Positions 40,586 to 58,591 of a stretch of DNA of 64,000 nucleotides are shown one piece after another. The number at the start of each line of letters is the position of its first letter. The first letter of the stretch is position 1. Source of the DNA: a virus (lineage: Duplodnaviria; Caudoviricetes); the IMG/VR virus record IMGVR_UViG_3300035208_004923, positions 224,001 to 288,000 of that record. One strand, given 5' to 3'. The translations under genes and the position numbers were made by a program. The notes below the pieces were generated by a model, which was not told the DNA's origin, did not search any database, and was given only the letters and a program-made list of their open reading frames with translations.

Positions 40586-41655
40586 TATACTAATTAATTT
40601 TTAAAATGACTTTGTGCTTCTTTATCCGTGTAAAATTTCTTTTCAACAATATCATAGTATATGCTATCAGATGTTGAACCTGGAAAATAAAGTGAACAAC
40701 CGTTAGATCCTTGGCCCATATTTGGTGTTCCATGATTGTACGCAAAATGTACTGTTGTCCAAATATATGCAGGGAAAGTAAAAACACCGTTTTCTTCTTT
40801 TCCCATTGGCATTTTTCTACCAGAGAAATTATCAATTGTTACAGAATTCATGCCATATTGAAATATGCCGTATTCATGTCTGTTAATAGGTTTTATAGTC
40901 ATATCAATATATCCTCTTGAATTTTTAACATCAGATATATTAAGTTGTATTCCTATTTTTTTGTTAACCAAATCAGAAAATGCTTGGCCCCAATTTTTTA
41001 ATATAGATGCTTCCAATTCAGATTGTGAAGTTATCGTAGAGTCAGATACCATTTGTTCTGATTCGTTTAAAAATTGTGAAGATTCATTGATGAATTCGTC
41101 AAGTGTTGGTATTCTTCTTTCCATTATACTAATTAATTTTTAAAATGACTTTGTGCTTCTTTATCCGTGTAAAATTTCTTTTCAACAATATCATAGTATA
41201 TGCTATCAGATGTTGAACCTGGAAAATAAAGTGAACAACCGTTAGATCCTTGGCCCATATTTGGTGTTCCATGATTGTACGCAAAATGTACTGTTGTCCA
41301 AATATATGCAGGGAAAGTAAAAACACCGTTTTCTTCTTTTCCCATTGGCATTTTTCTACCAGAGAAATTATCAATTGTTACAGAATTCATGCCATATTGA
41401 AATATGCCGTATTCATGTCTGTTAATAGGTTTTATAGTCATATCAATATATCCTCTTGAATTTTTAACATCAGATATATTAAGTTGTATTCCTATTTTTT
41501 TGTTAACCAAATCAGAAAATGCTTGGCCCCAATTTTTTAATATAGATGCTTCCAATTCAGATTGTGAAGTTATCGTAGAGTCAGATACCATTTGTTCTGA
41601 TTCGTTTAAAAATTGTGAAGATTCATTGATGAATTCGTCAAGTGTTGGTATTCTT
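40544..41655. repeat. Tandem duplication, 539-bp unit, bounded by three copies of a 34-bp leader-coding sequence
   Basis: ttcattgatgaattcgtcaagtgttggtattctt at 40544, 41083, 41622; the two intervening units read as identical. Confidence 0.95.
40594..41124 (-). CDS. Leader-bearing protein, duplicated copy
   Basis: MERR leader plus body identical to 41133..41663. Confidence 0.75.
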   Translation of the reverse strand: MERRIPTLDEFINESSQFLNESEQMVSDSTITSQSELEASILKNWGQAFSDLVNKKIGIQLNISDVKNSRGYIDMTIKPINRHEYGIFQYGMNSVTIDNFSGRKMPMGKEENGVFTFPAYIWTTVHFAYNHGTPNMGQGSNGCSLYFPGSTSDSIYYDIVEKKFYTDKEAQSHFKN

Positions 41656-41663
41656 TGTTTCAT
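41133..41663 (-). CDS. Leader-bearing putative internal head protein
   Basis: MKQRIPTLDEFINESSQFLNES. Confidence 0.75.
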   Translation of the reverse strand: MKQRIPTLDEFINESSQFLNESEQMVSDSTITSQSELEASILKNWGQAFSDLVNKKIGIQLNISDVKNSRGYIDMTIKPINRHEYGIFQYGMNSVTIDNFSGRKMPMGKEENGVFTFPAYIWTTVHFAYNHGTPNMGQGSNGCSLYFPGSTSDSIYYDIVEKKFYTDKEAQSHFKN

Positions 41664-41978: not shown

Positions 41979-43328
41979 TTACAGTTTAGATGCAGCTAAT
42001 GTTGCAACAGCAGATCTTTCACCTTTTTCTAATGTGACATGAGCAAACATTGGTTCGCCTTTTAATTTTTCAATAACGTATGAAACGCCACAGCTGCTTT
42101 CTGATAAGAAAGGATTGTCGATTTGTTGAACATCACCCGTGAATACAATTTTACTTCCTTCACCAATTCTAGTGATAATTGTTTTCATTTCAAGCGGTGA
42201 TAAGTTTTGTGCTTCATCAACAATAAACAATACATTCGATAAACTTCTACCACGGATAAATGCCAAAGGTGTAACAACAATTTTATCTTTTAATGTAGTA
42301 TCATCAAATTTCTTTTGACCTTTTTTAACAGTGTAAGATTGCGTTTTGATGAATTTTAAGTTATCCCAAATTGGGTCCATGTATGGGCCAATTTTTGAAT
42401 CAACATCGCCTGGCAAGAAACCTAAATCTTTATTGTTTAAAGATACAATAGGTCTAGCAACATATATTTCATTAAAATCATCAATTTGTTCTAATGCAGC
42501 AGCTAATGCAATTAATGTTTTACCTGTACCTGCAGCACCTTGTATTGATACGATTTTGATTGAGTTATCTAAGATTGCATCCATTGCAAATATTTGTTCC
42601 GCATTTCTTGGCATAATATTTGCAGAACTTTTCTTTTCAACATGATGTAAACATTTATCAACAGTTGAATACGCAGCGATAACAGATTTCTTTCCGTTTT
42701 TAATAATGAAATATGTATTTGTTAAAATTTCACCTTCACCAGGAAAACCTTCAGATTCAGCAAATTCAGATAACGGAACACCATCAGTTTCAAGATACAA
42801 TTTATCAATAGCTTCGATAGGAGCGTTCTTTAATAAATATTTTCCAGTGAATCTTGTATCTGTATTACGAATAGAACCTGCAATATAATCTTCTGCTTGT
42901 AAGCTTAAAGATTTCGCTTTTACTCTCAAGTTAACATCTTTTGATACTAAGATAACATCTGCATCTGGGTATTTTTCTTGTTGCATTAAAGCAACATCTA
43001 GAATTCTATGGTCTGGTTTATTTTCGTGAAAAATCTTAACTGCACTATTTTCTGGTGTATCTCGTAAATACGAAACTTTTATTTTTCCCGCACCTGGCTC
43101 ATCAATGTCAACCCATGTATTTAATCCATCTTTTGTTGATAACTTATCAATTACTCTGGTAAATTCTCTTGCCTCATAATTGATAGGCTCATTACCTTTT
43201 TTGAAATTATCTAGTTCTTCAAGAACAGCGATTGGAATTACCACGTCATGTTCTGCAAATTTTTTGTATGCAGCGTGGTCGTGCAAGATGACACAAGTGT
43301 CTAGTACGAAAATTTTTCTTTTTTCCAT
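41979..43328 (-). CDS. phoH: PIN-PhoH (PhoH2) protein
   Basis: VLDTCV PIN domain; GAAGTGKT, RGRS, DEAQN, GDVQQID. Confidence 0.9.
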   Translation of the reverse strand: MEKRKIFVLDTCVILHDHAAYKKFAEHDVVIPIAVLEELDNFKKGNEPINYEAREFTRVIDKLSTKDGLNTWVDIDEPGAGKIKVSYLRDTPENSAVKIFHENKPDHRILDVALMQQEKYPDADVILVSKDVNLRVKAKSLSLQAEDYIAGSIRNTDTRFTGKYLLKNAPIEAIDKLYLETDGVPLSEFAESEGFPGEGEILTNTYFIIKNGKKSVIAAYSTVDKCLHHVEKKSSANIMPRNAEQIFAMDAILDNSIKIVSIQGAAGTGKTLIALAAALEQIDDFNEIYVARPIVSLNNKDLGFLPGDVDSKIGPYMDPIWDNLKFIKTQSYTVKKGQKKFDDTTLKDKIVVTPLAFIRGRSLSNVLFIVDEAQNLSPLEMKTIITRIGEGSKIVFTGDVQQIDNPFLSESSCGVSYVIEKLKGEPMFAHVTLEKGERSAVATLAASKL

Positions 43329-43344
43329 ATATGTAATTGTTTGT

Positions 43345-43902
43345 TTAAATGTTGATGAATTCTTTTTCTCCAGTTGTATGACTGTAAGTATACACTTCTG
43401 GATTAAATTGTTTTGGTTCAGTTAATTCTTTTGCGTATTTTTTACCACAACCTGGTTTTAAATATGCAATTGTTATGTGTGGGTGGTAATCAGGAAAATC
43501 TGATGTATATTCAAAGTTTTCACATATTTCTTTGTTAAGCTTAAATAAATTATCGCCTTGTATGTCGTACTTTAATACATCATATTTTGGATTTTCAAAA
43601 ATGCTAATAGCATCCGAACTTAATTCAATTGTTGATAAAGATGGCAGCATACTTTTTAACTTTTCCATGTCTGTATCTGCGTGTAAGCCGTAAAGTACAG
43701 TTACGTGTGGCTCTGTTTCAAATCCGTAATCTTCCTCTTCGGTATACAAATCATTGGCATCAACCAATGTATGAATAAAATTGTCCCATCCGTCGGTATT
43801 TACATTTACCATTAGACAACTATAATCGTATACTTGTTTTGATGCCTCATTAATTTGTTTTTGTTCAACAAATTCGTTTAATGTTATGATTCTTTGTTTC
43901 AT
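43345..43902 (-). CDS. 2H phosphoesterase, Acb1 (T4 57B)-like, with leader
   Basis: PHVTVLYG and DFPDYHPHITIAY (two HxT motifs); leader MKQRIITLNEFVEQKQINEA. Confidence 0.75.
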   Translation of the reverse strand: MKQRIITLNEFVEQKQINEASKQVYDYSCLMVNVNTDGWDNFIHTLVDANDLYTEEEDYGFETEPHVTVLYGLHADTDMEKLKSMLPSLSTIELSSDAISIFENPKYDVLKYDIQGDNLFKLNKEICENFEYTSDFPDYHPHITIAYLKPGCGKKYAKELTEPKQFNPEVYTYSHTTGEKEFINI

Positions 43903-44166: not shown

Positions 44167-44247
44167 AGCAACTTGTTTTTTTAATGTTTGTTTGTATTTT
44201 ATATATTCATTAAATCTGAAGCATGATGAATATCATAAAAACAAATG

Positions 44248-54798: not shown

Positions 54799-56508
54799 TT
54801 ATACTAAACCTCCAGCTGGAGTAGCAACGAAGAATGTGAAATACATTGTTTCTGGGTGGAAACCTGCTTCAACAAGAGCGTAACGAGATTTAACGGCAAC
54901 TTTCGGAGTCATTGTACCTTCAGCAATTGTTTGGATAGTTTCAGCCATCAAGTAAGGCATGTATTTTAATCCTGGTTCTTCATCAGCACCTTTACGTCCT
55001 ACTAATACACGAGTATCAGACCAAGACATGTTAGGGTCAACATATACAGTCATACCTGCAACAGCACCTACTGGGTAAAGTGAACCGTTGTTTTGGTTGA
55101 TTGTATTTGCCATTGGAGCAAATGTGAATTGTGCAGAATCTTGTAAGATTGTAGCGATTTGAAGGTTTGTAACAATGAAGTTAGCAGGACCTCTACGACC
55201 TCTTTGAGAGATTACGTTACCACCAGCAAGAATTCTTGAGAAAACTCTACGTTGAACAGTCCATTGGTTTTCAAATGCTGCAGAAGGATTAGCTCCAGCG
55301 AACAATGACATAACAGGAACAGACATTGTAGTAGTTGCACCGTCTTTATTGTTGAATGTTTGGTAAGTTGTACTAGCACTTGGGTCAGTTTGCAAGTTGA
55401 AGTTTTGACCTTCTACTTCAGCAAATGTATTGTGGTTAGTCCATCCTAAAGCAAACGCTCTTGATAAGATGTGTTTGTTGATTGATTGAGATACTTCGTT
55501 CACTAATGAATTTTCAACCATACCTACAACATCGATACCGAATTGACGGTTAAGATCTTGTATTTGTTCAGTTGTTACAGTAGCAGCAGCTTGGTAAGTT
55601 TCAGCTTCAACGAACTTAGTGAATGTTTGAAGACCCATAGTTCTGTAGTAAGTTTGTTCACCAATACCTCTTCTCATTGGTTCTGGGTTAGAAGCACCAT
55701 TTGCATAGTTTCCAGTCCAAGCATCACCATCTTGAGCACCAGCACCAGTATATCCTTGGATATGATCTTCTAAAGCTTTCACTAAAGAAGCAGTTGCAGT
55801 ACAAGGTGTAGCAGCAGGAGAACCATCAGAATCAATTGTAAATGCAGATCCAGTGTTGAATACATCAGCAACTAATAAATGAGGAGTTGAGATAGAAGCA
55901 GTTTGCCAAGCAGAACCGATTTTATATTTTTCGCCAGATTTAAGAGCACGGAAGATTTTGTATGCATCGATACGAGATTTACCAATATAGATTAACTCTA
56001 AGTTGTTTGATCCTGAAGTTGCAACATATTTAGTACCTACTGTGTAAGAACCACCGATGTTAACTTTAATCATTGTTGGGTTTTCTGCGTTTGCATCAGA
56101 TGGGTCGTTTGGTAATTTACCACCAGCATAAACGTAGTCAAGGTAAGTTAATACTCCTGAAGGACCGTTCATTGGAATTACAGGTACAATATCAAAACCG
56201 ATTGTTCTAGCACCAACTTGGATTGCAAGAGGTAAAAGAGAAGGGAATTTGTCACCTGAACCAGTTGCAGCGCTATGGAAAGCAGCACCACCAGCAACTT
56301 GACCTGTAGCCACGTTACCCATACCTGGAGTGTTTTGTAAAGATGCAGCAGGCCATGCCCATCCGCCTACGAAAGAAGATTCATTCAAAGCGTGGAAGTG
56401 GCAATATTTTGATAACCAAGCAAGTTTACTTTTGTCTGTAATTTGCGTTTTTTCTTCTACGATTGGTGCCCATTCTTCGAAAATTTGTTTTTCGTTTAAA
56501 AGTTTCAT
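54799..56508 (-). CDS. Major capsid protein (T4 gp23-like)
   Basis: VPVIPMNGPSG, EQIQDLNRQFGID, RRGPANFIV, YMPY, VKSRYAL; biased codon usage; start reassigned to ATG 56508. Confidence 0.92.
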   Translation of the reverse strand: MKLLNEKQIFEEWAPIVEEKTQITDKSKLAWLSKYCHFHALNESSFVGGWAWPAASLQNTPGMGNVATGQVAGGAAFHSAATGSGDKFPSLLPLAIQVGARTIGFDIVPVIPMNGPSGVLTYLDYVYAGGKLPNDPSDANAENPTMIKVNIGGSYTVGTKYVATSGSNNLELIYIGKSRIDAYKIFRALKSGEKYKIGSAWQTASISTPHLLVADVFNTGSAFTIDSDGSPAATPCTATASLVKALEDHIQGYTGAGAQDGDAWTGNYANGASNPEPMRRGIGEQTYYRTMGLQTFTKFVEAETYQAAATVTTEQIQDLNRQFGIDVVGMVENSLVNEVSQSINKHILSRAFALGWTNHNTFAEVEGQNFNLQTDPSASTTYQTFNNKDGATTTMSVPVMSLFAGANPSAAFENQWTVQRRVFSRILAGGNVISQRGRRGPANFIVTNLQIATILQDSAQFTFAPMANTINQNNGSLYPVGAVAGMTVYVDPNMSWSDTRVLVGRKGADEEPGLKYMPYLMAETIQTIAEGTMTPKVAVKSRYALVEAGFHPETMYFTFFVATPAGGLV

Positions 56509-56539
56509 TTTATTGAATTTTTTTATTTTAATGTTTGTT

Positions 56540-58591
56540 TTATCTGTTGAATCTATCAAGATTTGCTTTTACGCTTTCCATATAGCTTTTGCTATATCCA
56601 CGTTGTGCAGCTCCAGTTTCTTCAACAATTTGAGCATTTGCTGATTCGTTCAGCGTACCGTTGCCTTCAACTTTATGCAATCCACGAGTTTGCCAGAAAT
56701 TGATTACTTGTCGTTCAGTATTCAATGGGTACAATTTCGATTGTGAAGCAATTTGATTCTTTGCAGATTCAGTTAGAGATTCCCAAGTTGCTTTGTACTC
56801 CTCAGGCATTTTTTCTAACCATAGGTCAGATTTTGGTGCTAGAGATTGAGTTGCTGCTCTTTCAAGTAAAGCAGTCATTTCTTCTTTACTTTTGTGGTTG
56901 TTTTCATTGATAGACGATGCAATCTGTTGTTTTTGAATGTCTGTAAAAGAAATAAATTTCTTAACTTGTTCGCCATCTAAATTCTTTAAGAAAGGATAAT
57001 TTTCAATGTGTTCATTGATTGGATTCATCTTTTGTGTTTGGATAGATTCCAATAAGTTGTCAATTTTGCTTCCTAAAGAAGTATATTTACTTAATATGTT
57101 TTCTTTTTCATTAACAACAGCTTCATTAACAATTGGAGCAGTTGTGTTTGTTTTTACGCTTTCAGAAATTGCTTCAGCAAAACCTGCAACGTTTTCAAGA
57201 TCTTCACGAGTTGCAGCATTTTCACCTAAGTAATCAGCGTATACGTGAACTTCGTTTGTTTTCTCCATGATATAATCTTGGTAGTTCCATAAGTGATTAA
57301 TTTTTTCAGTAATTACTTCTTGGATATAAGATTGTGTTTCATGTAATTCTTTTGCTAAAACTTCTTCAGCATAATTTAAACCGTAATTTGCTTGTTCTGC
57401 AATTTTCTCAGAGTAAGCAATATTTTTTTCAAGTAACGGTCTAATTTTATCGTTTAAATAACCAGCAACATAATTATGATCTTCAGCAATTTTTTCAGTG
57501 TATGCAGCAACATGATTATGATCTTCTGCAATACGTTGTGTATAATCTGCTAACCAGTTATGATCTTCACCAATCAATTCAACATAATTAATTGTATCAG
57601 AAACATATTTAGAAAGTTCATTAGAATATTTCTTGATTGTAACAATTTCACCTTCAAGAACTTTAATTCTTTCATTTGTTTCATCGGTTGTAGATTCTTG
57701 TGGCTTAACAGATAAAGATTCCATTTTCTTAGTCATTTCAGCGATTGCCGATTCAAACTTTTCCATTTGTTCTTTAACATGTAAAGAATACTTGTACATA
57801 TCTTCAGCCGTAACAGTATTATTATTTTTTTCCATGCTTGATGAATTATTTTTATTATATATTGCTTCATTCAATGCATTTTTTTCAACTTGTGCATTTT
57901 GGGTTGAAGCAGGTTTTGTTTTCTTTGTTAAACTAAAATCATATATACTAAAATCAGCACCTTCAATTAATAAATCAGGATACTTATCAGTCACATCGTA
58001 TAAATTAATGCCATCAGCACCATTGAATCCTAATTCTTTATTTAATGAAGGTAATTCAGTTTCCATTACTAATCCTGAACAGATAGATTCGTATACACGT
58101 TCCATTTCAGCATTATCGCCAAATCCGCCATCCGCAACTAAATCATAAGTGAAGATTCTTTTGATTTTAACTTCTTTGTTTTCTTTAACAACACCTGCAG
58201 CTCTAGATGAAATACTAATAGGGAAACCTGAATCAACAAGTTTTCTAGCATTTAAACCAGCAGGGTCAGTATCTAATAATCGAATACGTCCTTTAAGTGT
58301 ACGTGTTTCTTTATCATACCAAATTTTTTCAACAAGATGTGAAATGTTTGCAAGACTTACATCGAATTTTTCAGGATGATCTAATTCACCAGCTAATTTA
58401 TTTCTTTTGATTTTTTCTTGTAAATATTCCAAGTGTGGCATGTATTCGTCTTCTTCGTAAATTCTATGATTTACGTTTTCTTTACCGAATACACAAAAAA
58501 TTCCTTCAAGAATATAATTGTCTTTATCAACAACTTTAAATTCATGACCAGATTTTTCAGTTAATAAAAATACCTTAGCGTTTTTTGACAT
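56540..58591 (-). CDS. Prohead protease (gp21-like) fused to scaffold/core domain
   Basis: NVNHRIY, GELDHP, ISH, ISSRAAG, TYDLVADGGF; coiled-coil tail with AEDHN repeats and many [LIV]NE sites. Confidence 0.88.
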   Translation of the reverse strand: MSKNAKVFLLTEKSGHEFKVVDKDNYILEGIFCVFGKENVNHRIYEEDEYMPHLEYLQEKIKRNKLAGELDHPEKFDVSLANISHLVEKIWYDKETRTLKGRIRLLDTDPAGLNARKLVDSGFPISISSRAAGVVKENKEVKIKRIFTYDLVADGGFGDNAEMERVYESICSGLVMETELPSLNKELGFNGADGINLYDVTDKYPDLLIEGADFSIYDFSLTKKTKPASTQNAQVEKNALNEAIYNKNNSSSMEKNNNTVTAEDMYKYSLHVKEQMEKFESAIAEMTKKMESLSVKPQESTTDETNERIKVLEGEIVTIKKYSNELSKYVSDTINYVELIGEDHNWLADYTQRIAEDHNHVAAYTEKIAEDHNYVAGYLNDKIRPLLEKNIAYSEKIAEQANYGLNYAEEVLAKELHETQSYIQEVITEKINHLWNYQDYIMEKTNEVHVYADYLGENAATREDLENVAGFAEAISESVKTNTTAPIVNEAVVNEKENILSKYTSLGSKIDNLLESIQTQKMNPINEHIENYPFLKNLDGEQVKKFISFTDIQKQQIASSINENNHKSKEEMTALLERAATQSLAPKSDLWLEKMPEEYKATWESLTESAKNQIASQSKLYPLNTERQVINFWQTRGLHKVEGNGTLNESANAQIVEETGAAQRGYSKSYMESVKANLDRFNR

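Follow-up and report, generated by a model that had tools for sequence, protein, structure and literature searches.

In the 64,000-nucleotide (nt) stretch of DNA analysed here (positions 224,001–288,000 of the IMG/VR record IMGVR_UViG_3300035208_004923; hereafter, the window), one open reading frame (ORF) encodes a 185-amino-acid (aa) precursor of a 2H phosphoesterase, which carries at its N-terminus a leader peptide of a type shared with 37 other proteins of the same genome. By sequence profile, the enzyme appears to be closest to the Acb1 type of phage counter-defence enzymes. The leader resembles the capsid-targeting sequence of phage T4, and genes for a T4-type prohead protease and a gp23-type capsid protein lie in the window. 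The explanation that we tentatively favour is that the protein is a tagged, packaged and trimmed 2H enzyme that hydrolyses nucleotide messengers of host defence.

The contig that carries the window (C1; 425,361 bp, 31% guanine plus cytosine) is one of 78 in a metagenomic bin and belongs to an uncultivated giant tailed phage. Its gp23-type capsid protein shares 47% identity with that of the uncultured phage LR756500, ~40% with those of Prevotella Lak megaphages, and ~31% with those of Tenacibaculum phages pT24 and PTm1 and Sphingomonas phage PAU. No match to the 6-kb neighbourhood was found at the nucleotide level among GenBank phages. The 181 relatives of the 2H enzyme, of which 70 were aligned, came from a collection of 5.8 billion proteins, and an exhaustive profile search covered 1.84 billion cluster representatives.

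The 2H enzyme and its relationship to Acb1

Two H-x-T motifs had been reported in a first-pass annotation of this DNA, and both were confirmed, as H66-V-T68 and H142-I-T144. The four catalytic residues are among 18 columns that are invariant in the alignment of the 70 homologues, and all 18 residues are present in the window enzyme. In the AlphaFold2 model (predicted local distance difference test score [pLDDT], 87.9), residues ~21–185 adopt the 2H fold, and the protein thus combines the two features that define the 2H superfamily, a pair of H-x-T/S motifs and a duplicated alpha/beta fold. Judged from its sequence, the enzyme is a catalytically intact 2H phosphodiesterase. The ORF matched phrog_755 in PHROGs. 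The clade to which it belongs is very large and mostly metagenomic, with 5,845 clusters (50% identity) recovered by the exhaustive search at E ≤ 0.001 and 4,694 at E ≤ 1e-10.

Pfam assigned the window ORF both to 2_5_RNA_ligase2 (PF13563; 31.7 bits) and to Acb1 (PF23474; 27.3 bits), the cut-off being 27 for both. Across the 70 family members, Acb1 was detected in 69 (E < 0.001) and the generic PF13563 in 63. When PDB sequences were searched with the family profile, the three best matches were all of the Acb1 type, namely 9Q2G (3.4e-5), 9Q2Y (0.0015) and 7T26 (0.009), followed by the archaeal LigT 1VDX (0.17); to give a sense of scale, T4 Acb1 itself matched 9Q2G at only 0.004. A profile was required for this result, as a PDB search with the single sequence of the window enzyme returned noise-level matches only. 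These data support the view that Acb1-type enzymes are, by sequence profile, the nearest characterized relatives of the window enzyme.

Like the Acb1 proteins of T4 (57B) and Erwinia phage FBB1 (7T26/7T27), the window enzyme is a small stand-alone phage enzyme with the 2H fold, an HxT/HxT tetrad and a nearly identical block at the second motif. The likeness of this block to T4 57B, noted in the first-pass annotation, was confirmed: residues 135–147 lie in a stretch of 53% identity over 19 columns with the true T4 sequence. When the family profile was aligned to T4 Acb1 alone by hhalign, just 19 columns were aligned. The base-stacking residues W74 and F107 of Acb1 (PMC9117128) have equivalents in F102 and F136 in the profile alignments. 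The two enzymes differ at the position of Acb1 Y12, which by motif register is L30 in the window enzyme and is non-aromatic and variable across the family, and no equivalent of Acb1 W147 or E141 could be placed in the profile alignments. They also differ at the C-terminus, because the flexible, Trp-containing lid of Acb1 (residues 145–152) is absent from the model, which ends in a confident strand (residues 180–184; pLDDT ~90) with no tail. The extra residues of the window enzyme are N-terminal, not C-terminal, whereas T4 Acb1 starts almost at its first strand and has no cleavable leader.

In the T4 genome (NC_000866, 73591–74410; L011:592–1411), acb1 lies directly upstream of ipI, the gene for a packaged anti-restriction internal protein, and over its first nine residues 57B is similar to the beginning of the targeting peptide of IPI, a similarity that may be due to chance. 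T4 Acb1 is not known as a virion protein, and we know of no report of 57B in virions.

The leader peptide and the head genes

The N-terminus of the window enzyme reads as quoted in the first-pass annotation (RIITLNEF..QINE, followed by A). The leader type to which it belongs has the consensus M-x-x-R-I-P-(T/S)-L-D-E-F-I-N-E and was found on 38 ORFs, all of them on C1; the other 77 contigs have none. With the exception of one duplicate pair, the bodies of these 38 ORFs are mutually unrelated, and those leader ORFs that were scanned matched no known family. Glu occupies position 14 in 28 of the 38 leaders. The copies of the leader use different synonymous codons for Pro, Thr/Ser, Leu, Asp, Phe, Ile and Asn, thereby indicating selection on the peptide, not on the DNA. 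The leader of the window enzyme has Ile for Pro at position 6 and carries I-N-E at positions 17–19 and not at 12–14. The distance from E19 to the start of the domain is 5 residues, which is the modal distance in the 2H family, and in the model residues 1–20 form a low-confidence helix outside the domain. A 176-aa leader-bearing ORF is duplicated in tandem (40594..41124 and 41133..41663, minus strand), and the two copies differ only at residues 2–3.

The C1 leader ends in I-x-E and can be aligned with MKTYQEFIAE, the capsid-targeting sequence of T4, at which the head protease makes a single cut. T4 gp21 cleaves after I/LxE (PMC12991175), and the internal proteins of T-even phages are diverse, share just the targeting sequence and include some with anti-defence functions, such as IPI* (PMC3012670). 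Three features expected of T4-type targeting were found in C1: a short N-terminal peptide common to unrelated proteins, as in IPI*, IPII, IPIII and Alt; an (L/I)xE end that leaves the domain intact; and an S77 protease together with a gp23-type capsid protein in the genome. The C1 leader is unlike the T4 sequence in its greater length, its conserved R-I-P core, its presence on at least 38 genes instead of a handful, and its cargo, which is not basic. A proteome was looked for among relatives that bear this leader, and none was found.

The presumed leader-cutting enzyme is a prohead protease fused to a scaffold-like C-terminal region. Its PTm1 homologue is annotated as scaffold plus protease, and the fusion is thus common to both phages. 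The scaffold-like part contains 4.35 (L/I)xE sites per 100 aa, compared with 3.24 at the 95th percentile of C1 ORFs. This region spans ~480 residues with repeated "...IAEDHN..." units and 21 (L/I)xE sites. In the capsid proteins of LR756500 and PTm1, an (L/I)xE was found in the N-terminal propeptide region at a place matching that of the L-N-E of the C1 protein.

We then compared the N-termini of 2H homologues. The canonical leader was kept in eight orthologues at 57–64% identity. On a freshwater phage contig (L008; JGI 3300002835, 115 kb), the N-terminus of the 2H homologue matched a different, resident leader carried by at least five neighbouring ORFs, and the match scored 39 in its own locus versus ≤19 in foreign loci. 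The extension of the homologue followed the leader type of the resident phage in three loci (L008, L012 and L013), and a weaker version of the pattern in L008 was seen in two huge-phage records (L002 and L003). Two leader families occur on many small ORFs of L008 (1–20567), one of the form M-N-L-Q-E-N-I and ending near M-M-G, the other M-K-I-(I/V)-I-T-E. The huge-phage records (L003:19–5938 and L002:2197–5195; LR745206 and LR756502, phages of 630–640 kb) contain runs of ORFs with leaders of the M-K-(H/Y)-(L/I)-K-x-F-(N)-E-S type, and the 2H homologue of L003 is the N-terminal part of a 438-aa protein. The only part of the extension that is conserved across the family is the (L/I)xE pattern. 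Of 118 homologues, 109 have it 3–7 residues ahead of the domain, where shuffles predict 40.6; among stand-alone representatives of 50%-identity clusters, the count is 63 of 74, against an expectation of 26.6. It also precedes the domain inside longer proteins (36 of 45).

The same 2H clade occurs in fusions with an ADP-ribosyltransferase (ART) exoenzyme, with ART-PolyVal, and with DUF5661 plus poly(A) polymerase head domains (P0136, P0251 and P0183; 800–1,475 aa), and these fusions tie the clade to the polyvalent-protein class. Iyer et al. (2017), who described such domains in polyvalent proteins as well as their solo counterparts, predicted that they enter the host along with the phage DNA and either target signalling nucleotides or work as RNases of the Usb1 type (PMC5512222); the fusions give an independent hint of delivery. 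The window domain belongs to the same clade, with profile matches that include the ART and ART-PolyVal fusions, but stands alone behind a presumably cleavable leader of the T4 type and not in MuF, portal or large multi-domain carriers. Among the BFVD matches, a 2H domain is also contained in actinophage proteins of 880–1,100 aa whose annotation reads structural protein or RNA ligase (Gordonia GMA2, Tardus, MelBins), a further sign of 2H domains riding on virion proteins.

Transcription unit and other genes of the contig

The order of the unit that contains the 2H gene is box, small ORF, 2H and PIN-PhoH (Table 1), and a terminator scan across the three genes found no convincing terminator between them. 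The related phage contigs L012 and L013 share the order of 2H followed by PIN-PhoH, and in L013 a homologue of the 85-aa ORF sits behind the same box. The 85-aa ORF of the window starts with a degenerate leader-like R-L-S-S-I-T-D-F, with no (L/I)xE after it. The box, GAATATATAA, is present in 21 copies in the window, versus 5 expected, and in 53 copies on C1. It lies 11–32 nt upstream of the starts of the protease gene (23 nt), where it heads the protease–capsid operon, and of several leader ORFs, a terminase-like gene and the 85-aa ORF. This arrangement suggests that the 2H gene is probably transcribed together with the head genes.

Table 1. Coordinates of the 2H gene, its parts and associated features (window positions unless a contig range is given)
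Feature	Position	Strand	Basis
Whole ORF, 185-aa 2H phosphoesterase precursor	43345..43902	-	ORF call, Pfam, AlphaFold2 model
Leader, residues 1–19, ending I17-N18-E19; predicted cut before A20	43846..43902	-	Leader type common to 38 C1 ORFs
Predicted mature enzyme, residues 20–185 (166 residues), 19.2 kDa, isoelectric point (pI) 4.5	43348..43845	-	Modelled fold ~21–185
First catalytic H-x-T, H66-V-T68	43699..43707	-	Read directly; invariant in 70 homologues
Second catalytic H-x-T, H142-I-T144	43471..43479	-	Invariant in 70 homologues; aligns with T4 Acb1 H113-x-T115 block
Promoter-like box GAATATATAA heading the 2H transcription unit	44199..44208	-	Enriched in window
85-aa ORF, first gene of unit, ends 6 nt before 2H start codon	43909..44166	-	ORF call
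PIN-PhoH protein, no leader, 17 nt downstream of 2H gene	41979..43328	-	PIN_4 1.3e-35, PhoH 3.3e-48
gp23-type major capsid protein, L-N-E ~45 residues from probable ATG start	54799..56511	-	Family match
T4-type prohead protease (Peptidase_S77) fused to scaffold-like C-terminal region; presumed leader-cutting enzyme	56540..58591	-	Family match; PTm1 homologue
RNA-repair-type cassette: consecutive genes for PTH2 peptidyl-tRNA hydrolase, a fusion of HD and polynucleotide-kinase domains (382 aa), and RNA ligase (397 aa)	L020, G000:C1:370300-374200

The RNA ligase and HD-Pnk genes of C1 form an end-healing cassette 105 kb from the 2H gene, with an HD phosphoesterase of its own. The 2H gene showed no association on C1 with an RNA ligase–kinase module, as would be expected of a LigT-type or cyclic phosphodiesterase (CPDase) gene, and because the contig has its own cassette, the 2H enzyme would not be needed for RNA end healing. 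Elsewhere on C1, DNA polymerase B matches in two ORFs (412 and 466 aa; G000:C1:146103-146789 and 168047-168415, ~22 kb apart) suggest a split polymerase, and two terminase-like genes are present. A search of the metagenomic bin for SMODS/CD-NTase found none, which is uninformative, since the bin need not be the host.

Proposed role, alternatives and significance

We infer the following course of events. Like the capsid-targeting sequence of T4, the leader would probably bring the precursor into the prohead's scaffold core, and the S77 prohead protease would probably remove it after E19, leaving the 166-residue enzyme in the capsid. The mature enzyme would then enter the next host along with the DNA and hydrolyse defence second messengers there, most likely those of CBASS (antiphage signalling based on cyclic oligonucleotides), type III CRISPR (clustered regularly interspaced short palindromic repeats) or similar systems. 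Packaging and trimming are likely; an immune-nucleotide substrate is a good possibility rather than a probability. The combination builds on known kinds, namely Acb1-type 2H enzymes, T4-type capsid targeting and injected 2H domains, and does not constitute a new category. In our literature search, no paper connected Acb1 with a capsid-targeting sequence, and none contained the C1 leader sequence. The first-pass annotation had described an Acb1-like anti-CBASS phosphoesterase, pre-packaged in the virion by means of its leader, and had suggested that the other leader-bearing ORFs may be a pool of anti-defence proteins. "Acb1-like enzyme with a cargo leader" is sound as a description, considering the intact 2H domain, the Acb1-type profile matches, and the recurrence of the leader in a genome with a T4-type head protease; "anti-CBASS" and "pre-packaged" stand as hypotheses.

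Several observations weigh against this explanation, and the first group concerns the substrate. Membership of the window enzyme in Acb1 appears marginal, as the ORF is barely over the Pfam threshold and is outscored by the generic 2_5_RNA_ligase2; its conserved neighbour is a PIN-PhoH RNase/helicase; and structure comparison does not single out one 2H subfamily. In favour of a signal-degrading role, the top Foldseek matches were viral phosphodiesterases (PDEs) that degrade signals, namely the penguinpox cyclic GMP-AMP PDE, rotavirus VP3, PDE-9 and Acb1, but by Foldseek and VIA-align Acb1, Usb1, LigT and rotavirus VP3 are inseparable. According to the preprint of Doherty et al. (2025), the substrates of viral 2H enzymes are specific to the group, and two of the structural groups hydrolysed none of the 18 messengers tested. 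The enzyme may thus be tagged and probably packaged but act on RNA in the manner of LigT, CPDase or Usb1, opening 2′,3′-cyclic phosphate ends or trimming RNA, either with PIN-PhoH or against host anticodon nucleases. LigT, other 2′,3′-cyclic phosphodiesterases and Usb1 share the fold and the catalytic tetrad with the window enzyme, and their structural scores are tied. However, PIN nucleases normally leave no cyclic phosphate ends, the end-healing cassette of C1 is already present without a link to the 2H gene, and Acb1-type enzymes rank above LigT in the profile searches. In addition, this 2H type was never linked to RNA ligases by Iyer et al. (PMC5512222). We regard an RNA substrate as possible but clearly less probable than an immune messenger.

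The second group of observations concerns the extension. PDE-9 of Burkholderia phage BCSR5 (9Q2G/9Q2Y), the best PDB profile match, has an extension of ~15 residues before its first strand, at the place equivalent to the leader, and these N-terminal 15 residues act as a substrate lid (Doherty et al. 2025). The (L/I)xE is kept at a fixed distance from the domain even within multi-domain proteins, a fact that cuts both ways, as it could be a processing site retained in polyproteins or a part of the domain. The leader-bearing proteins as a group are not basic and the mature 2H enzyme is acidic, unlike the T4 internal proteins. Five loci (L007 and L016–L019) have no neighbour within 10 kb that shares the N-terminus of the homologue, so that the presence of a leader is not established family-wide. 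A PHROG scan of the other genes behind the box returned no functions, and the portal gene and one terminase-like gene of C1 have no box directly upstream; on these grounds, the box is no more than a putative late promoter. Finally, the prohead protease can itself set off CBASS at a late stage, and late cytoplasmic action would therefore be sensible.

Taken together, these points could be accommodated if the extension does not load the capsid but is an active-site lid, as in PDE-9, or a tag for localization or for timed activation by the head protease, the protein being a late cytoplasmic enzyme. We consider this unlikely, and somewhat more so than action on RNA. The same 11–14 residues are found on 37 proteins with unrelated bodies and end in a protease motif, unlike a substrate lid, and the extension lacks family-wide conserved residues other than (L/I)xE. 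It also tracks the resident leader type in L008, L012 and L013, and C1, with its T4-type head genes, bears a leader that can be aligned with the capsid-targeting sequence of T4. That the gene is a decaying or non-functional copy with a degenerate tag, no longer targeted or useful, is suggested by its leader being the most divergent of the 38 (Ile6, no I-N-E at 12–14), but is very improbable, because the ORF is intact with every family-invariant residue, I-N-E is kept at the exact modal distance from the domain, and the operon position is conserved.

The packaged, messenger-degrading enzyme therefore remains the explanation that we prefer for the window gene. It is a more doubtful proposition that the whole Acb1-related clade (~4,700 clusters at 50% identity, E ≤ 1e-10) is capsid cargo as a rule, equipped either with a lineage-specific leader or as an (L/I)xE-flanked domain in injected polyproteins, and reaching the host before phage genes are expressed; under such a rule the leader may replace the lid and keep the precursor inactive until it is cut. 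Acb1, Apyc1 and other known counter-defence enzymes that degrade signals are believed to be synthesized once infection has taken place. Delivery of such an enzyme with the DNA would let it act ahead of any signalling by the host. If true, this would extend the idea of the T4 internal protein beyond stoichiometric inhibitors, of which IPI* is one, so as to include a catalytic enzyme directed against signalling, and the recurring (L/I)xE tag would offer a simple means of finding virion cargo by sequence in T4-type and giant phages that are uncultivated.
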